DNA from: Candidatus Velthaea sp.
GTDB lineage: Bacteria; Vulcanimicrobiota; Vulcanimicrobiia; Vulcanimicrobiales; Vulcanimicrobiaceae
Length of the DNA stretch: 64,000 nt
Direction of reading: 5' to 3'
Assembly (NCBI GenBank): GCA_050012475.1
Contig: JBEKHC010000007.1
Span: forward strand, 1 to 64,000
Both the position numbers and the translations under genes were made by a program. Shown here piece by piece: positions 11,899-20,510 of the stretch (position 1 is the first letter of the stretch; each line of letters starts with the position of its first letter). The notes beneath the pieces were generated by a model. The model was not told where the DNA came from. It did not search any database and saw only the letters and a program-made list of their open reading frames with translations.

Positions 11899-12219
11899 AT
11901 GACTGACAAGCCCACGGCCGCACGAAACTCCTTCGGCGACATCGCGCCCGCCTTAGCAATGTACACCGACGAAGTTCTCTTCGGTGATGTGTGTGAACGC
12001 ACTGGACTTTCGAAGCGCGACCGCAGCCTCGTGACCGTCGCCTGCCTGGTCTCGCTCTACCGCACCAATGAACTGCCGTTTCACTTAAAACGTGCGATCG
12101 AAAACGGCGTGACCAAAGATGAACTGATCGAAGCCATAACGCACCTCGCGTTTTACGCCGGGTGGCCTGCAGCGATGACGGCGGTGCAGGCGGCTCGTCG
12201 CGCGTTCGAGGAGATCTAA
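11899..12219 (+). CDS. carboxymuconolactone decarboxylase (CMD/AhpD-like) family protein
   Basis: DEVLFGDV.ER.GLSKRDRSLVTVA, ELPFHLKRAIENGVT..EL.EAITHLAFYAGWP. GGAG RBS. Confidence 0.92.
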   Translation: MTDKPTAARNSFGDIAPALAMYTDEVLFGDVCERTGLSKRDRSLVTVACLVSLYRTNELPFHLKRAIENGVTKDELIEAITHLAFYAGWPAAMTAVQAARRAFEEI

Positions 12220-12329
12220 GTGCGTCGGCGTCCTCGGCAGCGCGAATGTCGGAAAGACGTTCGCACGAGCATTCCGCTCCCGCGGACACCACATGATGAT
12301 CGGTTCGCGCAAGCCTGCGAAGCTCGAGG

Positions 12330-12615
12330 AGTTTGTGCGCGAGCATCGCGGCATGCAGGCGGGTTCAACTTTGCTCCGAGCGCCTGGGCCTCGTGCGACG
12401 GCCGGCTGCTCCCGATAAAGCTAGGCTGGAAAATAGAGTACGATCTCTATCAGGCTCTGTTTTCATTGCTGGGCACTACCTTTGGCGGCGACGGAAAGAC
12501 GAATTTCGCGGTGCCCGACTTGCGCGGCGCAGTCGCACCATTGAAGTCGCTAACGTTTTCCAACGCAGCGGAATATTCTACAGGCGAATTTCCTCAAAGG
12601 CCTCCGGGTGCTTGA
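12330..12615 (+). pseudogene. phage tail-collar domain protein (short form) with disrupted N-terminus
   Basis: GFNFAPSAWASCDGRLLPI..YQALFSLLGTTFGGDGKTNFAVPDLRG..GEFP. The expected N-terminal F.GEIR segment is out of frame or degenerate. Confidence 0.7.
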
Positions 12616-13508
12616 GCGGGGATCGTCTCGGGCCGTGCGGCACGGGGTCGCCGGTTGCTGCGGCGTCTCGTTAAAGCCCGAGCGCGTCGCGGCTCCGTTT
12701 TGCTGGATTTTGATGCTGCCATGGGAAAGCGGTTGAAGGCGGCTAAGCCTGTCCGCTAGGCGCCTCTCCGGTTTCTTTCACTTAGCGCGATTCGGCCAAT
12801 AGGACTTCGGCGTAGGCCGCTAATGTTTTCGCGGCAGCTTCAACCAATAGTGCGAAAGTTCGGCCCCGACATCAGCTGACGTGAAGAGCAAGCGCGGGGA
12901 CATTGGTTGTTTTCCGAGTGCGACCGAAGCCGCCCGCACGTCCGATGTCAATTGCCGGACACGCCGGTCGATCCGCGCCAGGACTCGGCCGCGTCCGAAT
13001 CGGCGCCTCTCCCTTGTCGGCGATGATAGCATCCGGTGTTGGCGACGATGCGTCCGGCCTTGCGATGCGCCCGGTGTTGCGATGATAACGTCCGCCGTGA
13101 GGTCGGCCAATTTTGGCTTGCCGGGCCAGCGGCAACCGATCTCGTTGACCGGGCGGGGCGTGTTCGAGGACGCGTTGCGGTTGGTGCTCTCGGCGCAGCC
13201 CGTCGTCTGTCCAAGGAGATGTCCGCCGTAATCGCGTGTCAGCCGACCGCACGCCGCAAAGAACGAGCTTTCGTCAGGCAGTCACCGATTCGTAGTTGCG
13301 ACCTTGCGGGATCAAGCGCCTGCGGCTCGCTGGGCATACAAGCGTACGAGGGTTAGAGCCGTTTGGCAGTGCCGCCGTAAGACCTTTGATTCAAGGCCTC
13401 GACCGCGGTTCGACGCTAACTGAGGGGGGCGAATGGACACTCCGCAAGTTTGCTTGGCCACTCTTCAAACCGATGGCTTGGCGTAAGGCTCGACAGAGAT
13501 GGTGCAAA

Positions 13509-15338
13509 ATGAAAGCAGCGATCGCAAGCATCGTGAAAGCCGGAGGACTCTTCACCTGCAGTCTGTTGCTGCTTCTGGGCGGCTGCTCGGGCGGAAGCAG
13601 CACCAACTCGACGCTTCCGATCGCCCCTGCACCGTCGCCGGTTGGCGCGCAGACGCCCAAGCCGGGAAGCTCGCCCACGGCTGTGCCCAGCGTGAAACCG
13701 TCGGCAATCCCCAATCCGGTCGTTAGCCCAACGCCGACACCTGCCCCAACTCCGATCGGGTTCAATGATTACGTGACGTTCGGGTACGATAACCAGCGCG
13801 ATAGCTTCAATCCGAATTCGACGGCGATCACGTCGGCGAGCGTGGCCGCCATGCATCTTGTCTGGCAGTCCGCGTTGAGCGGTGACTTCGACACGCAGTC
13901 TCAACCGATTCTGGCGACGGAGATTCCCGGACACGCCGGCGTGCTGTTCGTCGCCGGCGGTTCAGGGAGAATTTACGCTTTCGATGCGTTGACTGGGAAG
14001 TCGATCTGGACGACGACCACCGGCCAGGCACACTACGCCTGCCCCGACAGCACCGGCGCGTTGAACAAGTTGTCCTCGTACGGCATCGGCGGCACCCTCG
14101 CATACGATGCCGCCTCGAAGTCGCTCTATGCGGTCGGGAATTACAGTCCCGGAACCACCGCGTATGCAAGCAACATCTTATATCACATCGACGCGGCCAG
14201 CGGGACGGTCATCGGTCAGGTGAACTTCGCCCCGGCGCAAGTCAGTGCCGGAGAGTTTAACAATCACGCGCACACGTCAGTCGCGCTGAGCAACGGTACT
14301 GCGTATGTCGGCATCGGCTCCGCGTGCGACGTTTCATCGTGGCGCGGAAGCGTCGTCGCCATCAGCGTTCCGTCGATGGCCGTTATCGGCACGTTCTTGA
14401 CCCTTTGGGACCCGAATAACACCAGAGGGCAGGGCGCGCAACCGTGGAGCGGTGGCGGCGTCTGGGGTTGGGGCGGCGTGTCGCTCGATGCCGCGGGCAA
14501 CGTCTTTACCGGTGTAGGAAATGCGGACAACGGGACCAACGTCGGCACGATCCAGGCGCCGTTTACGTCCGCCCCTCAGGAATATAGCGGTTACGCAGAG
14601 ACGCTGCTGGAACTCGCGCCAAACCTTTCACAGGCAATCGCGAGCCATCATCCGATCGGGCTGGGTTTCTATAACAGCAGTACGGGAGCGATCGATCTCG
14701 ACGTGCAGGGCACGCCGGTGCTTTTCACGCCGACTGGCTGTGGCCCGATGGTTGCTCTGCAAGCGAAGTCTGGTGAATTATCAGTCTACAATGAGGGAAC
14801 GCTGAGCAATGGGCCGGCCGCGCAATATGTAATGGGGCCCGCCAATGGCGACGACAGCTATTTAGGTAATCCGGCATACTCGCCAGCTACGGGTTTGTTG
14901 TATGCCGACATTTCGTCGAGCACTGCTCCGACATTGCTCCCTCCGGGTCTCATCGCCATCAATCCGGGCTGCGGCAACCCTTCGACAGCTTGGCACGCGC
15001 AATTCGGAACGGATTCAAGCCTGGCTAGCGTGTCGCGGCCGGTCCCGGCGGCCAGCGCGGGCGGCGTCGTCTTCGCGGGTTCGACGAACGGCAACGGCGG
15101 GAGCGTCTGGGTCCTCGATGCTTCAACGGGTGCCGTTCTCAACAATGGAGCGCCGCTCTTGCAAACCAGCGGCTACCTGCGCATGCCGCCAACGCTCGAC
15201 GGCAAGTGGGTTTTCATCATCGACAACAGCGGCGATCTCTACGGCTTGACGATCGACCCAAGCTACGCGGCGATCCGCGCCCGGTATCGTGCACCAAGTC
15301 CGCTGCAGCAGTCGCGCTACGCGGGGTGGCGGAATTAG
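13509..15338 (+). CDS. lipoprotein with Pro-rich linker and PQQ-binding-like beta-propeller
   Basis: Lipobox LGGC-SGG and PTPTP linker. TFGYDNQR, IYAFDALTGKSIW, GGGVWGWGG, DLDV and VLDASTGAVL blade motifs. Confidence 0.85.
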   Translation: MKAAIASIVKAGGLFTCSLLLLLGGCSGGSSTNSTLPIAPAPSPVGAQTPKPGSSPTAVPSVKPSAIPNPVVSPTPTPAPTPIGFNDYVTFGYDNQRDSFNPNSTAITSASVAAMHLVWQSALSGDFDTQSQPILATEIPGHAGVLFVAGGSGRIYAFDALTGKSIWTTTTGQAHYACPDSTGALNKLSSYGIGGTLAYDAASKSLYAVGNYSPGTTAYASNILYHIDAASGTVIGQVNFAPAQVSAGEFNNHAHTSVALSNGTAYVGIGSACDVSSWRGSVVAISVPSMAVIGTFLTLWDPNNTRGQGAQPWSGGGVWGWGGVSLDAAGNVFTGVGNADNGTNVGTIQAPFTSAPQEYSGYAETLLELAPNLSQAIASHHPIGLGFYNSSTGAIDLDVQGTPVLFTPTGCGPMVALQAKSGELSVYNEGTLSNGPAAQYVMGPANGDDSYLGNPAYSPATGLLYADISSSTAPTLLPPGLIAINPGCGNPSTAWHAQFGTDSSLASVSRPVPAASAGGVVFAGSTNGNGGSVWVLDASTGAVLNNGAPLLQTSGYLRMPPTLDGKWVFIIDNSGDLYGLTIDPSYAAIRARYRAPSPLQQSRYAGWRN

Positions 15339-15819
15339 GCGTCGCCGTCGGTCGCAAGCGCGACCGCGCTCGACGAGCGGCGTGCGGCGCAGGTCGCGTT
15401 CAACGAGCGCGCGCCGTTGCGCCGTTCAATGCCGACGCGGCGGCGCTTCTTGCCGACTCACAGAGGACGTGATACATCGGCAACGCGCCGCTGCAGCCGG
15501 GCCGACACGCGCGATATTCTGAAATTAGAAGGTCGCAGCGACAGCCCGGATCACCGCGGGGCCGGATGCGCTCGCCGAGTCGCTTCGTTCGCGCAACCTG
15601 GACCATGCGCGGTAGATTCCTGGCCGGATGAGTCGCGCGACAGACCTGACGAAGGTGCTGCGACCGCGCCCACGAGCGCGAAGCCAGCGCGAGGCCCGGG
15701 CCTTCGCCGCGTGGCCTGTGCCCGTCGAAGGCGGCGCCCCGCGGAGTTTTCGCTTGCGCCCTCGCTGGTCGGCTGACGTCTCCGCTCCGCCTTTGCTCGC
15801 TCCCCGCTCGCTCCGTCCG

Positions 15820-16099
15820 CATAGGCCGGGCGCAAGGCCGGGCCTCGAGCGCCTCGATGCCCGTCTCGAGCCTGTCGAGTCGGGCGAAGCCCGCGCGCGT
15901 TTCTATCCGGAGTGCGTGTCTGCCCGGAGTGCGTGTCTGCGCGTACCTCGTCGACGTCCGTTTGAAGCCGGCCGACGTTGGCCGAGATTCTGTGCATCGC
16001 CGTCTCGAGTTTCCCGGCCTCTTCCGTAATGTGGTCGAGGCTCACGGCTGTCCGGTCGATCCAGTCGGCTCCGCCCTCGGCGGTCGGTTCCAGCGCCAA
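15820..16099 (-). pseudogene. degenerate small coiled-coil protein broken by a 17-bp tandem duplication/frameshift
   Basis: KLETAMHRISANVGRLQTDVDEVRAD continues in another frame as RIETRAGFARLDRLETGIEALEAR. CCGGAGTGCGTGTCTGC x2 at 15907-15940 lies at the junction. Confidence 0.45.
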
Positions 16100-16293
16100 A
16101 CGGGGCTAGATAAAGCCGTTGGACGCGCTTTTGGAACTAGTCAGCCGAGCCCCCGTCGACGCACTCTGGCGTCCGCGACGGCCCGAAAGCTGTCACATTT
16201 CTCAGGCCAGCCGCACTGCAAATCGTCTCGTCTCGATCAGATCGTCTTACTCGCCTGGGGGACGTGGTATCGGCCCATGATAGGATTGGTACA

Positions 16294-16749
16294 ATGCGAC
16301 GCGCGGCGCCGGCCGGATACGACGACGACTTCGCCCTGTGGGCCGAGGAGCAGGCCGTCGCGCTGCGCGAGGGGCGCTTCACCGAGCTCGACCTGCCCCA
16401 TTTGCTCGAGGAGGTCGACGACCTGTCAGGCAGCATTCGGCGCGAAATCCGCTCGCGGCTCAAGCAGATCACGGCGCACTTTTTGAAGTTCCAGTACCAG
16501 CCGGAACGCGCGAGCCCGTCTTGGGAGACCACGGTTCGCGTTCAATCCTCGGAGATCAACGACTTGCTCGAGGACTCGCCGTCGTTGCAACGCGAGATGC
16601 CTGAGTTCACAGCCACGGGTTATCGTCGCGGTCGCAAGCTGGCAAGTACGGAAACGGGCCTGCCGATCGCGACCTTCCCGCAAACGCCGACGCCCGAGTT
16701 CGCCCGCGTGCTGGCAGCAGCGTTAGCCGGCGACGACTTCGCGCCTTAG
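16294..16749 (+). CDS. DUF29 family protein
   Basis: YDDDFALWAEEQA..LR.GRF..LD..HL.EEV, H.LK.QYQP, SW..T, LLEDSPSL, ETGLP..TFP. Preceded by TGa-TAGGAT 7 nt before ATG, so probably leaderless. Confidence 0.9.
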   Translation: MRRAAPAGYDDDFALWAEEQAVALREGRFTELDLPHLLEEVDDLSGSIRREIRSRLKQITAHFLKFQYQPERASPSWETTVRVQSSEINDLLEDSPSLQREMPEFTATGYRRGRKLASTETGLPIATFPQTPTPEFARVLAAALAGDDFAP

Positions 16750-17239
16750 TCGCCCTCGATTTCGGCCCACATCCGGCGCCAATCTGCAAGCTGTATCTGA
16801 TACGCGGAAATCGATTCGAGTACATCATGCTCGGCAATCAGCTGAGGTCTACGTTCAATGCCGAGAGCTTTGCGCAGAAATGGTAGGCGCAATGAGCCCG
16901 CGGAGATGGCGAGTACACGAGCACTTCGACGCGTTCCCGACCATGGCGTTCGAGTAAATCGCAAAGACCGAATGGCGCTCGTAGCGCGAGCGCGCCTCGT
17001 TCAGCCTGCAATCCCTGCGCAAATTCCCGACAAGCTGGGCCAGCAACTGCAACGTGGGCAACGATCGAGCGAACCCCCATAGTGCGGCTCCGAATCTGCC
17101 ACTAGGTCTAGCTTGTCGGCTAAACACCTTGCCGTCGGCGACAGCCGACCATGGAACCACCCGCGGATATTGAACGGCGCCGACGTCGCTGGCACATGCG
17201 CAGGCAGCCTGGGGTCGAGCGCTCATCTGTCTTTGGCGG

Positions 17240-17947
17240 CTATTGACTCGCGCGCTCTTCGGCTGCGTGGAACAGGTGCAAACCGACGAGCCGAGCCAGT
17301 AGGGTCGCGGGAAACATTTGTCCGAGGACGCCTTCGAAGTTGGCGGCCGCGCGCGCCAGCGGATGCAGCGGCACAACATCGCCGAACGTAGTCGACGTCA
17401 GAGTCGATAAACTGAAATAGAGCAGCGTCCCGAACGGCGGACGCGGTGGGCCCGAGAGTGCCCCGGGAAAGAAGATTTCGAGTTCCGAATAGACTTGCGC
17501 GAACACCAGCGCGATGTCCAGATATAAGACCACGGCGCCCTGGATACGATGGACCGTAACGCGGCCCGGACCGAAGACGGCGTTCAGGATCACCCACGCG
17601 ATCGCGATGCCGAAGCAAAAGTTTATCACCGCGAGTAGCGGGAGCACCGCGCCTGATGCAGACAGTCGTAGCGCATTGGTAGCCGCCGCGAGCATTGCGA
17701 CCGCGACGACCGTCGTTCGTGCCGCGCCGGCGTCCGCGACAAAGAACGCCGCGATCAGGCCCAGCGCGAGTTGAAAGATCTGCGCTACGCTCCCGGCGAC
17801 GACGTGCATTTCGCTGAGCGGCCGCAACACAAACATCGCGAAGACCTGCATTATAAGCGTGACGGTTAGCGCACGATCGCGCCGCCGCTCCCGACGTGCG
17901 ATATCGGCGTCGGTGGCTGGCGTGTTGCCGTTCGGCCCGGCACTCAT
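17240..17947 (-). CDS. potassium-channel-family (two-TM pore, Ion_trans_2) membrane protein
   Basis: Several TM helices, then LLYFSLSTLTSTTFGDVVPLHPLAR..ANFEGVLGQMFPATLLARLV. Confidence 0.88.
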   Translation of the reverse strand: MSAGPNGNTPATDADIARRERRRDRALTVTLIMQVFAMFVLRPLSEMHVVAGSVAQIFQLALGLIAAFFVADAGAARTTVVAVAMLAAATNALRLSASGAVLPLLAVINFCFGIAIAWVILNAVFGPGRVTVHRIQGAVVLYLDIALVFAQVYSELEIFFPGALSGPPRPPFGTLLYFSLSTLTSTTFGDVVPLHPLARAAANFEGVLGQMFPATLLARLVGLHLFHAAEERASQ

Positions 17948-18545
17948 TGGAACCTGAACATTGCTGTCATGTCGGGAACGATTGCGCTATGGTGCATAAC
18001 GTCCACTTCGTGCCCAGAAGACCTGTGAAGATCGGTCGTCAGGCCCGCCAATTCTCACCACGGGCACGAATGCGCTTTCGAGCACCTAGTGAGATTCTGG
18101 CTTGGCGCCTCGACGGGGGCTTGCCCGAATAAGTTAGGAGTGTTGCGCTTGCGCGGCTTGTAGCCGTAGGTCATCGGCTGATCCTTCGGCGGGTAGGCGT
18201 CGTCGACGCAGGTCGGCGGCCTAGTGGCGAGCGCGTTCTCGGCTTTATCGGAGGACGGGATCGAGCAGCGCGCGCCGTTTGTTCGATTGACGACGCGGTG
18301 TGACGTCCTCACCAGCCGCGCCGTTGCGATATGAAGTTCGGCGATATGAAGCCAAGCGTCTCGCCCTCCAAGTTGCGGAACGCCGGTGCGTAGAAATCTT
18401 CTGGCACTCGAAGACGCGATCCACGCGTTCGAGTGCGAAGTGAATAAGGCGCAAGCGCGTCGCACTACACCGCCGGCGGCTCACGCGGATTCGCTGATCC
18501 CCGTTGATGGGGAGGAATCGGAAGCTTTCTGAGGGCCTTTTAATG

Positions 18546-18569
18546 AAAAAACCCTTACCGAATAAGGGT
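18546..18569 (-). terminator. intrinsic terminator of the tRNA transcript
   Basis: Stem ACCCTTA/TAAGGGT followed on the minus strand by a T-run, 5 nt past the tRNA-Glu CCA. Confidence 0.75.
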
Positions 18570-18574
18570 CTTCT

Positions 18575-18650
18575 TGGTAGCCCCAACGGGATTCGAACCC
18601 GTGTTACCGCCGTGAGAGGGCGGCGTCCTAGGCCTCTAGACGATAGGGCC
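18575..18650 (-). tRNA. tRNA-Glu (anticodon CTC), CCA encoded
   Basis: Minus strand GGCCCTATCGTCTAGAGGCCTAGGACGCCGCCCTCTCACGGCGGTAACACGGGTTCGAATCCCGTTGGGGCTACCA folds into a cloverleaf. Confidence 0.96.
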
Positions 18651-18656
18651 GTAGTG

Positions 18657-18727
18657 CTCCCGGGCAGAGACTCGAACTCCGATAAACGGCTTCAGAGGCC
18701 GCTGTCCTACCATTGGACGACCCGGGA
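18657..18727 (-). tRNA. tRNA-Gln (anticodon CTG), full CCA not encoded
   Basis: Minus strand TCCCGGGTCGTCCAATGGTAGGACAGCGGCCTCTGAAGCCGTTTATCGGAGTTCGAGTCTCTGCCCGGGAG. U1-A72 pair, TTCGA loop, 6 nt from tRNA-Glu. Confidence 0.95.
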
Positions 18728-19303
18728 ACGCCTATGATTCTTGGCACCGAAAGTTTCGGTCTGGCTGTGACAGTTCGGACACAGCATCCGAAGATTCTCA
18801 AGACGGTGATCGTCCCGGATGCCGTTGCGGTGATCGATTTGGATGGATAGCGGTTTACCCCTCCACTCCGTGAGGCCGCAGTCGTCGCATGCATTGATGA
18901 GTATACCAGCCTGGATCAAGCGACGCTTGATCGTCGTGCGCGACCGTGAGGTGGCAAGCACTTTGTTGATCGGCGTGAGGCGGCCGCGAGCCACCAATTC
19001 GCCGCGCTGAACGGCCTTCGTCCAGGAGGCGGGCGCAAATCGAAAGCGGTCCCGGCACTCCCGGTACGAGTGGCCCTCATCGTAGTAGCGCTGCACGTCG
19101 GCCCAGTCGTATCTGCGCCGGCGATCGGCAAAGGTTTCGCCGTCTCGCGGCACACGGAGCTCACCGCGGTTCAAGGCCTTGATCCAAGCGGTGTGCGAAA
19201 ACCCAAAAGCCTTGCAACAGGCGACGAACCGATGGCCCTCGTCGACGAACCGTTGGACAGCGGCCCAATCGTAGCGGCCACGTCGCTTGCACTGCTCTTC
19301 CAT
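18707..19303 (-). CDS. HNH endonuclease with two tandem N-terminal helical (HTH-like) repeats; 3' end overlaps tRNA-Gln
   Basis: Repeats RYDWAAVQRFVDEGH..CCKAFGF..AW.KALNRGEL and RYDWADVQRYYDEGH..CRDRFRF..SW.KAVQRGEL. CDDC..IQIDHRNGIRDDHRLENLRMLCPNCH follows. Confidence 0.92.
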   Translation of the reverse strand: MEEQCKRRGRYDWAAVQRFVDEGHRFVACCKAFGFSHTAWIKALNRGELRVPRDGETFADRRRRYDWADVQRYYDEGHSYRECRDRFRFAPASWTKAVQRGELVARGRLTPINKVLATSRSRTTIKRRLIQAGILINACDDCGLTEWRGKPLSIQIDHRNGIRDDHRLENLRMLCPNCHSQTETFGAKNHRRSRVVQW

Positions 19304-19310
19304 CCGACCA

Positions 19311-19343
19311 AGCATAGCCAACCCCTATGCCAGCCCCCTGGCA
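19311..19343 (-). promoter_or_regulatory. -10-like TATGCT plus perfect dyad TGCCAG-N4-CTGGCA upstream of the HNH-tRNA unit
   Basis: TATGCT (19316-19311) lies 7 nt before ATG 19303. The dyad is at 19328-19343, where a -35 would lie; no canonical -35 is seen. Confidence 0.5.
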
Positions 19344-19445
19344 CTCTGCCCAGAATACGAGCGAGGCGCCGGGGGAATAGGGTATCCCCAACCCGGTGGC
19401 CTACTAAGAAACCGCAGGATTCTTCTTTTTTCGAAGGAGTTGCGT

Positions 19446-20510
19446 TTGCAGGCAGTGGTCCTAGTCGGTGGCGAGGGGACGCGACTGCGTCCATTGACCC
19501 TCGAGACACCCAAACCGATGGTTCCGATCATGAACGTGCCGTTTCTAGAGCGGACCATGGAGCGGCTCAAGGAAGCAGGGATCGACGAGGTCGTGCTCCC
19601 GGCGGGATACCTGCCGGCAGCAATCAGCGATCACTTCGGCGATGGGTCCCGTTTCGGCATGACGATCGACTACGTCATCGAGGACACGCCGCTCGGAACC
19701 GCCGGCGCGGTCAAAAACGTGGCTCAATACATCAAGGGTCCGTTCTTCGTGCTCAACGGCGACGTGCTCACCAGCCTCGATCTGCGCAAGATGATCGAGC
19801 TGCACGAGCGTAAGCGCGGCATGGGCGTTCTTCATTTGATTCGGGTCGACGATCCGTCGGCGTTCGGCTGCGTCGTGCACGACGAGTCGGGCAAAGTCAG
19901 CGCGTTCGTCGAGAAGCCCAAACGGGAAGAAGCTCCAACAAACGAGGTCAACGCCGGAACATATTTGCTCGATCCGGCGGTTCTCGATCTCATCCCCGAC
20001 GGACGGATGGTCTCGATCGAGCGCGAAACGTTTCCGCTCGTCGTGGCCGGTTCACGTCCGCTGTATGCATATACGACGAGCGACTATTGGATCGATCTGG
20101 GAAACCCCAAGGCCTATCTCAGCGCCCACCACAACGTGTTCGACGGCGCGATGCCGCTGGGGATCGGGCAAGGGATCGAGGGGCCCGGGGCGAAGGATGT
20201 TCCTGCTGGTTCGTGCATTACGCCGGTCTATATCGGCGACGGCGTGCGAATCGCATCCGGCGCCAGTGTCGGGCCGTACGCCGTACTCGGAGCGGGGTGC
20301 TCGATCGGCGCGGGCGCGATCGTCCGCAACTCGGTTCTCTGGGATGCCGTCACGGTAGAAGAAGGCGCGTCGATCGACGGCGCGATCGTGGCCAGCCGCG
20401 CGCTCATTGGCGCGGGTTCGACCGTCAGGCCGGGATCGGTCATCGGTCACGGTGTCATCGTCAGTTCCGGATCGGAGTTGGGAGAGAACGCGCGCGTCTC
20501 AGCAGGCTGA
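19446..20510 (+). CDS. NDP-sugar synthase (mannose-1-phosphate guanylyltransferase-like) with left-handed beta-helix tail
   Basis: AAGGAG RBS before TTG. VLVGGEGTRLRPLT..PKPM, PLGTAG, VLNGD, FVEKP, YWIDLG motifs and hexapeptide repeats. Confidence 0.93.
   Translation: MQAVVLVGGEGTRLRPLTLETPKPMVPIMNVPFLERTMERLKEAGIDEVVLPAGYLPAAISDHFGDGSRFGMTIDYVIEDTPLGTAGAVKNVAQYIKGPFFVLNGDVLTSLDLRKMIELHERKRGMGVLHLIRVDDPSAFGCVVHDESGKVSAFVEKPKREEAPTNEVNAGTYLLDPAVLDLIPDGRMVSIERETFPLVVAGSRPLYAYTTSDYWIDLGNPKAYLSAHHNVFDGAMPLGIGQGIEGPGAKDVPAGSCITPVYIGDGVRIASGASVGPYAVLGAGCSIGAGAIVRNSVLWDAVTVEEGASIDGAIVASRALIGAGSTVRPGSVIGHGVIVSSGSELGENARVSAG

Follow-up and report, generated by a model that had tools for sequence, protein, structure and literature searches.

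The window analysed here, 64,000 nt of a Candidatus Velthaea sp. genome (assembly GCA_050012475.1, contig JBEKHC010000007.1, positions 1 to 64,000), carries on its minus strand a gene for an HNH endonuclease that runs into the adjoining tRNA-Gln(CUG) gene. We propose, with a probability of about 0.6, that its product is a damage-induced, free-standing homing endonuclease which cuts the default form of the tRNA-Gln(CUG) gene and spreads together with recoded alleles of this tRNA. The proposal builds on the fidelity of the nuclease gene to one locus, its gain and loss among relatives, purifying selection, the distribution of promoter motifs, and the exclusion of the default tRNA allele from genomes that carry the nuclease.

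The HNH gene is tied to one tRNA locus

On the minus strand, the HNH open reading frame (ORF; 18707..19303, 198 aa, ATG at 19303, TAG at 18709-18707) is followed by tRNA-Gln(CUG) (CTG in the gene; 18657..18727), a 6-nt gap, tRNA-Glu(CUC) (18575..18650) and an intrinsic-terminator-like hairpin with a T-run (~18545..18569), the latter recognized by its fold; a terminator scan listed it on the plus strand only. The last seven codons of the ORF (SRVVQW*, 21 nt) are nt 1-21 of tRNA-Gln(CTG), and a dyad and a −10 box, TATGCT, precede the ATG; each element of this layout lies where the first-pass annotation of the sequence had placed it. The 204 contigs of the genome hold a single copy of the HNH gene.

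Homologs of similar length number 1,737, within a superfamily of 20,740 representatives, and the named relatives of the protein place the family in the Vulcanimicrobiota (Eremiobacterota). As anticipated, the homologs abut tRNA 5′ ends: tRNA-Gln(CTG) adjoins the HNH gene in 80/80 of the loci inspected, the best 80 of 247 confirmed genome loci, an association far beyond chance. Different tRNAs are not used within the family, which stays at tRNA-Gln(CUG). Other tRNAs, and many different ones, occur with distant phage relatives, where a tRNA lies ≤600 nt away in 56 of the 64 best-scoring loci (79 were fetched). No motif of a second HNH gene at tRNA-Gln(UUG) was found in the loci scanned.

Two HNH genes in tandem at one tRNA locus are seen in L033, L052, L059, L060, L065, L070, L075, L088, L091 and L154, and facing pairs in L067 and L086; either arrangement may reflect successive invasions or a two-enzyme unit. 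One contig from a viral collection (L163) contains the whole HNH-promoter-tRNA-Gln-tRNA-Glu locus together with the dyad, and may be the host flank of a prophage or a transfer vehicle.

The N-terminal part of the protein is made of two repeats (aa 11-52, 19148..19273, and aa 65-106, 18986..19111, both minus strand), which AlphaFold2 models as three-helix, helix-turn-helix-like modules (helices 13-21, 26-33, 37-46 and 67-75, 80-87, 91-100). The predicted local distance difference test score is >90 for both repeats, and their placement relative to each other and to the rest is uncertain (predicted template modelling score 0.44). The CxxC/DHxNG/CxxCH catalytic core follows (aa 139-179, 18767..18889, minus strand); it matches Pfam HNH barely above the cut-off (21.7 vs 21.4 bits) and the PADLOC HEase model with an E-value of 2e-13. 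In the model the tandem repeats look like DNA readers, and an HNH core joined to two three-helix repeats of predicted DNA-binding function is the anatomy of a free-standing homing endonuclease. Repeat 1 is missing in some relatives (13 loci were scored as shorter one-repeat forms). A fold search of the PDB with the model gave no match at E<=0.001, a search of BFVD returned 20 viral matches that are mostly named HNH endonuclease and none of which is tied to a characterized enzyme, and an NCBIfam search yielded no family for the protein.

For a sample chosen independently of the nuclease, we searched 171 family genomes with tRNA-Glu, 145 of which matched; 100 newly fetched regions and 27 earlier ones gave 127 genomes, and tRNA-Gln was called in 125. 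This sample overlaps the one collected by nuclease homology, and close kin in either are not independent. Unpublished genomes were left out of it, as well as of the tRNA identity comparison and the 74-locus set described below; the 108 homolog loci and 107 carrier alleles include a single unpublished genome (G032), on which no claim rests. Of the 125 genomes, the gene is intact with two repeats in 49, intact but shorter in 13, reduced to a fragment in 21 and absent from 42. Relatives with an empty promoter-tRNA-Gln junction, which the first-pass annotation had called for, do exist: G146 has a clean empty site where G073 has an insert of ~470 nt, the upstream flanks being 97% identical. Decayed HNH scars are present in G001 and G017, and orphan LexA boxes stand at 6/42 gene-free sites. 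The gene thus cycles through gain, decay and loss at one conserved intergenic locus, with filled and empty alleles among relatives as in the homing class.

Seven of ten carrier pairs have nonsynonymous-to-synonymous substitution ratios (dN/dS) of 0.06-0.15; two near-identical pairs gave 0.51 and 0.66 and one pair was saturated. By these ratios, the HNH gene is under purifying selection.

In G001, ~115 nt of decayed HNH leader that end exactly at tRNA +1 occur a second time past the terminator of tRNA-Glu, with an integrase-like remnant behind them (L119:1309-1427 and 1654-1768); this could be an att-type duplication or an assembly artefact.

Carriers lack the default tRNA-Gln(CUG) allele

In 28 family genomes, tRNA-Gln(CUG) has a mean pairwise identity of 0.785 with 28/28 sequences distinct, the lowest value of ten tRNAs compared; the others range from 0.844 to 0.989 (10-29 genomes each), including its sisters tRNA-Gln(UUG) (0.909), tRNA-Glu(CUC) (0.966) and tRNA-Lys(CUU) (0.941), as well as tRNA-His (0.844). 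Within the genus Velthaea alone, tRNA-Gln(CUG) identities are 0.68-0.90, and those of tRNA-Gln(UUG) and tRNA-Glu(CUC) are 0.99-1.0. In three nuclease-free genera the identity of tRNA-Gln(CUG) is 0.89-1.0. The four stems are 98.6-99.9% paired in 102/102 alleles, so the constraint on this tRNA is not relaxed.

As the default allele, W, we defined the label-free, genus-weighted medoid. Exact W is found in 8/42 gene-free genomes, which belong to 6 genera scattered on the host-gene tree, and in 0/62 intact carriers and 0/21 genomes with a fragment; 17/42 gene-free genomes vs 2/62 intact carriers are within 5 nt of it. In permutations with the centre re-set each time, the observed gap was reached in 0/2000 runs overall and in 1/2000 within genus. 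The distance of tRNA-Glu from its consensus is equal in carriers and non-carriers.

The exclusion is strongest around the anticodon arm. W 14-18-mers over tRNA nt 17-40 occur in 12-14/42 gene-free genomes and in 0/107 distinct carrier alleles. These carrier alleles keep the W D-arm in 13 cases, the T-arm in 7-16 and the anticodon arm in 0-1, whereas gene-free genomes keep all three about equally (11-17/42). A W 20-mer was found in 15 genome loci, 14 of them gene-free and one with a fragment. The allele of the window differs from W by 13 nt, and its anticodon stem is recoded; the end of its D-arm and its anticodon arm (18685..18711, minus strand), which differ from W in this genome, mark the candidate recognition site. 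As W is excluded from carriers, we infer that W is cut near the anticodon arm.

Close relatives differ in confined tracts. L013 and L015 have an identity of 96-99% in the gene and of 98% in tRNA-Glu, and of only 56-80% in tRNA-Gln; L041/L057 and L037/L040 differ chiefly in the anticodon stem; and pairwise maps of close loci contain tRNA-only, anticodon-stem-only and HNH-only difference tracts. Gene conversion from other host tRNAs was considered as a general source of the alleles and rejected, the longest exact matches being mostly 6-12 nt and in a few cases 14-16 nt. One tRNA-Gln(CUG) (L092, G013) shares a 23-nt D-arm stretch with the tRNA-Gln(UUG) of its own genome, a possible paralog conversion. 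In G018, the 3′ half of tRNA-Gln(UUG) recurs three times behind that tRNA (L262, G018:C1:1920153-1920645), and the tRNA-Gln(CUG) of the same genome was called with an irregular anticodon loop.

Could the target be the tRNA itself? A damage-induced tRNase that cuts W-type tRNA-Gln(CUG) RNA at the anticodon arm, with the recoded tRNA as antidote, would fit the part of the molecule that is excluded and the occurrence of very different alleles beside nearly the same protein, and there is a precedent in the HNH-containing Septu PtuAB, which is reported to cleave tRNA-Tyr and to depend on its HNH motif for defence (PMC13096335). We consider this reading unlikely, as the neighbours are a sugar-nucleotidyltransferase gene and tRNAs with no ATPase partner, PADLOC ranks HEase first and returns no Septu model, and the modelled tandem three-helix repeats look suited to reading DNA; moreover, an RNase alone would leave the precise gene replacement and the invasion of empty sites unexplained.

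It is very unlikely, in our view, that the nuclease does not act on the tRNA at all and that a recombination or integration hotspot under relaxed constraint is linked to it by shared history only. Such a history would accommodate the weak covariation of nuclease and allele described below, the many nuclease-free genomes with derived alleles, and the duplicated leader with its integrase-like remnant in G001, and CAG codons can be read by the UUG tRNA through wobble. However, the other C34 tRNAs, Glu(CUC) and Lys(CUU), are conserved, the stems of tRNA-Gln(CUG) stay paired, the exclusion of W survives permutation within genera, and nuclease-free genera keep one allele.

A predicted tRNA promoter inside the ORF

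The first-pass annotation took the nuclease mRNA to be the ordinary 5′ leader of the pre-tRNA, and named a tRNA promoter inside the HNH gene as an observation that would speak against this. Among 108 de-duplicated homolog loci, a sigma-70 promoter lies at the junction, inside the last codons of the ORF, in 62, and the other 46 lack it. In 26 of these 46 loci and in 0/62 of the former, an extended −10 element, TGGTATA(C/A)T, is present ~180 nt 5′ of the tRNA. In the Velthaea copy, a putative internal promoter, TTG-N8-TGGTATACT (18900..18919, minus strand), has its extended −10 at 18908-18900 within Ala-Gly-Ile-Leu codons, and its predicted start site would give a leader of ~170 nt. These promoters do not support the transcript model of the first-pass annotation.

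In the tRNA-Glu sample, the internal −10 occurs in 14 intact carriers, all of which overlap the tRNA and none of which has a junction promoter. The Gly-Ile at the internal −10 is encoded as GGT ATA in 25/31 promoter-less loci vs 0/10 others, and therefore the constraint acts on DNA. In G017, the gene has decayed and the internal −10 motif is still intact. From this conserved codon choice and this scar, the internal promoter appears to supply the tRNAs. The loci are related, and the quick tree of them has an unresolved base; 20 of the 46 promoter-less loci have no internal motif and are unexplained. A consensus promoter scan of 18400-19600 gave no sigma-70 site because both promoters, the internal one matching the extended −10 consensus and the one ahead of the ATG, lack a −35 box. 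In RNA contigs, one of four runs holds two exact pieces of low depth, 18884-19149 and 18523-18829, for which DNA is a possible source.

The stop codon within the tRNA probably follows from tight abutment

In the first-pass annotation, the ORF borrowed its stop codon from tRNA-Gln as a device to control the nuclease. RNase P cuts at tRNA position +1 and tmRNA tags the products of non-stop mRNAs; selection against an own stop codon would then let RNase P convert the transcript into a non-stop mRNA and tmRNA remove the nuclease, with the dyad serving autorepression. Several observations lean this way: the overlap is real in the Velthaea copy and tmRNA is present in the genome, in 38/46 loci that lack a junction promoter the ORF extends into the tRNA, one RNA-library contig covers 18829-18523, and stop removal through tRNA processing has been proposed for segB and the T5 F-Tfl genes, for the latter as a lowering of expression by transcript processing (PMC2330249).

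Nevertheless, we regard this model as highly improbable. The ORF ends before the tRNA in 65/108 homolog loci and inside it or past its start in 43/108; the exact 21-nt overlap, found in 5/108, is not a family trait, and overlaps span 10 to 241 nt with varying frame. Among the intact carriers of the tRNA-Glu sample, 39/60 stop upstream and 21/60 inside the tRNA (2 of 62 were not scored). Most upstream stops are the TAG of the −10 box of the tRNA promoter (TTGCAA-17/18-TAGTAT), so the ORF just runs into whatever follows. The tails of promoter-less loci contain 8 stops in 322 codons vs 4.9% stop triplets in other frames, a mild shortage that is expected of coding sequence and does not decide on stop borrowing. 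Besides, a promoter within the ORF could provide the tRNAs, and the dyad is one of the motifs of the host. In our preferred explanation, the ORF comes to its stop within the tRNA as a by-product of their tight abutment, and RNase P cutting may shorten the mRNA of the Velthaea copy, with dampening as a side effect. The selfish-type HNH element tied to a tRNA is supported, with its two helical repeats, patchy presence, decayed copies and empty sites, and the stop-borrowing device is not.

Predicted damage-response motifs precede the nuclease gene

The dyad upstream of the ATG (19328..19343, minus strand) was noted as TGCCAG-N4-CTGGCA and is better written TGCCA-N6-TGGCA, a spacing that has 10 occurrences in the genome vs 1-5 for the other spacings tried. 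The −10 box TATGCT (19311..19316, minus strand) of the putative inducible promoter lies 11 nt past the dyad and 7 nt ahead of the ATG, with the same spacing in homologs, and the HNH mRNA is probably leaderless. In 105 loci, the region ahead of the first HNH gene contains the dyad alone in 48 cases, a LexA-type box alone in 40, the two together in 4 and no such motif in 13, which makes a damage motif of some kind in 92/105. The Velthaea promoter has no LexA box in 19303-19460; other homolog loci have one in 44/105.

A dyad matrix built from homolog sites, with the Velthaea genome excluded, gave 19 matches in this genome vs 3-7 in three shuffles. The top matches precede genes for a UvrD-like helicase, a DEDDh exonuclease and a Uma2 nuclease, two TnpB genes, the HNH gene itself and ssb, or lie in the lexA intergenic region; several others are unannotated. 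In the Velthaea genome, recA is preceded by the dyad and also by a LexA box. In 7/10 nuclease-free genomes the dyad precedes recA; one has a variant and two, of another family, have none. Because the same dyad stands before host repair genes (recA, lexA, ssb) as well as tnpB, and also in nuclease-free genomes, its proposed role as an autorepression site of the nuclease is unlikely, and its distribution points to a host DNA-damage promoter element. Across the genome, the exact LexA palindrome shows no enrichment (40 occurrences vs 27-79 with other spacings); the LexA assignment rests on its position before lexA, recA, imuA/imuB-like genes and a dnaE2-like polymerase gene, and on the Gram-positive LexA box consensus.

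The element resembles the mycobacterial PafBC motif, tGTCgg-N10-tA-N3-T (PMC8635444): TGGCAC-N10-TA-N3-T has the same spacing, sits at about −26 with a −10 box and no −35 box, and marks recA, lexA, ssb, helicase and exonuclease genes. It differs in sequence and in being a full dyad. The Velthaea genome has three WYL genes, and no PafBC orthologue was identified. The dyad marks out a candidate DNA-damage regulon, independent of LexA, in a soil phylum that has received little study.

The two TnpB genes (G000:C12:67401-68628, L412, and C37:35831-37102, L410) start 6-9 nt past the dyad and −10 box and are probably leaderless and damage-induced. A dnaE intein with a LAGLIDADG domain (G000:C72:11106-13751, L414) has a dyad-plus-10 match in its first codons, 9 nt ahead of an ATG in the same frame. 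This could be another selfish nuclease on a damage promoter, or the match may be due to chance, as the CLxxGT codons of the intein resemble the dyad.

Host-type damage control, together with purifying selection and largely vertical descent, might suggest a domesticated defence, which upon DNA damage or infection cuts incoming DNA of phages or elements with W-type tRNA-Gln(CUG) while the host is recoded only to avoid self-cutting. A W 20-mer is indeed found in viral contigs, each time in a tRNA-Gln(CTG) amid other tRNA genes. However, there are just 4 such matches in 2.9 million viral contigs, with a G+C content of 44-50% vs ~63% in the host genome; among viral contigs scanned for tRNA-Gln(CTG), a real one was present in 14/80 fetched loci. 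One self-avoiding change would be enough for such a system, which leaves allele turnover, decay (21/83) and tandem pairs unexplained. As TnpB genes use the same promoter, damage control need not mean host benefit, and we judge defence an improbable function.

A proposed homing cycle with replacement of the tRNA allele

Taken together, we favor the following cycle for the homing endonuclease. The HNH gene would be quiet in normal growth, and its leaderless mRNA would be made when the host responds to DNA damage, through the dyad in Velthaea and, for other lineages, through a LexA box, at a time at which both RecA and single-stranded donor DNA would be available. Meanwhile, the tRNAs would be supplied by the promoter within the ORF, so that the insert would not cost the host its tRNAs. 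The helical repeats would recognize the default tRNA-Gln(CUG) gene as DNA near the anticodon arm, and the HNH core would cut at this place. A carrier template would serve for the repair, with the upstream host gene or leader on one side and the conserved tRNA-Glu on the other, and a recoded, fully paired tRNA would be copied in, either together with the nuclease gene or alone. HNH variants of shifted specificity would then displace one another's alleles and make the tRNA hypervariable. Both flanks of such an exchange are well kept: the mannose-1-phosphate guanylyltransferase-like host gene (19446..20510, plus strand, divergent; best NCBIfam match E 1e-98, below the cut-off) is the constant upstream anchor, found in 109/115 tRNA-holding homolog loci, and tRNA-Glu(CUC) (mean identity 0.966 in 28 genomes) is the 3′ homology anchor. 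ComEC and DprA are encoded in the genome.

Several observations weigh against this cycle. Across 74 loci, the distance between tRNA alleles is barely related to that between HNH genes (Mantel r 0.11, partial 0.07, p 0.05), and HNH distance follows host-gene distance (r 0.54), so much of the inheritance is vertical. Pairs with near-identical alleles in different genera have an HNH identity of 0.61 vs 0.58-0.59 otherwise (7 pairs) and show no sign of recent travel as one cassette. More than half of the gene-free genomes (25/42) differ from W by >5 nt, the intact carrier G121 differs from it by only 3 nt, and in G101/G021 and G181/G161 a genome that has the gene and one that lacks it share the same allele. 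Both L013 and L015 were taken from a single short-read assembly and may be a chimera. Finally, tRNA-His(GTG) (L275-L304) is the second most variable tRNA (0.844, 13/13 distinct). Residue-level covariation between HNH and tRNA reached a partial r of 0.16 in its best window, uncorrected, and is not relied on. The weak covariation and the derived alleles of gene-free genomes are in keeping with an old element that underwent bursts of replacement and was lost later on, and do not fit a cassette that always travels as a unit.

More tentatively, and at somewhat less than an even chance, the locus may act as a chromosomal gene drive, in which the nuclease, timed by the damage response, cuts the ancestral tRNA-Gln(CUG) gene at the anticodon arm, forces its replacement from a family-wide pool of recoded, functional alleles and rebuilds the tRNA promoter in its own codons. 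An arms race between nuclease variants would in that case make one tRNA gene hypervariable over a whole bacterial class, and the trigger would be a dyad regulon that had not been described before and is also used by TnpB.

Surroundings of the locus

The region 3′ of tRNA-Glu (window ~11900-18500) is filled with patchy small genes, including one at 16264-16749 that may resemble DUF29 proteins. In most close locus pairs, identity past tRNA-Glu falls to ~50-65%, as in an integration hotspot.

Significance and comparison with known systems

Phages are known to have free-standing homing endonucleases next to their tRNA genes, and little is established on the targets, timing and effects of such enzymes on bacterial chromosomes. 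The HNH family offers a predicted target, which is the anticodon arm of one defined tRNA allele, as well as predicted resistant alleles, a predicted trigger and a possible way to spare the tRNA supply. If our reading is true, a selfish nuclease and not translation would explain the fast compensatory evolution of a tRNA gene, and the 102 natural alleles would chart the sequence space of a working tRNA-Gln. A full-text literature search, outside of which most subscription journals lie, returned no paper on the HNH family, its damage motifs, the internal promoter or the exclusion of tRNA alleles.

The Septu and retron-Eco7 PtuAB proteins are likewise HNH nucleases in a conflict over tRNA. PtuAB combines an ATPase with the HNH protein and is reported to act on RNA during infection (PMC13096335), whereas the Velthaea locus has no ATPase neighbour and no Septu match in PADLOC.

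T4 SegB, a free-standing GIY-YIG enzyme, is reported to cut tRNA genes and to home together with flanking DNA (PMC2330249, PMC13096335). By analogy, the Velthaea enzyme would share with it the free-standing state, co-transcription with tRNAs, spread with flanks and a proposed removal of the stop codon. SegB reportedly recognizes the universal T-loop motif and cleaves many tRNA genes, its own among them, in contrast to the Velthaea signal, which points to the anticodon arm of one allele. SegB also belongs to another catalytic family and acts in phage co-infection, whereas the Velthaea HNH gene resides on a bacterial chromosome whose carriers are recoded.

Closest in the nuclease domain is T5 HegA, with a homologous HNH domain (35% over 69 aa, pairwise E 2e-17, Velthaea aa 121-189) and a different overall architecture, to which the Velthaea repeats do not align. 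In the T5 record (NC_005859), hegD overlaps the 5′ end of tRNA-Gln(CUG) by 23 nt and hegC overlaps a tRNA-Ser by 14 nt; HegC and HegD have no detectable homology to the Velthaea HNH protein. Thus, in contrast to the phage-borne T5 Heg enzymes, the Velthaea element is chromosomal and has two N-terminal repeats, and it appears to combine a damage-type with an internal promoter and to target a single tRNA isoacceptor.

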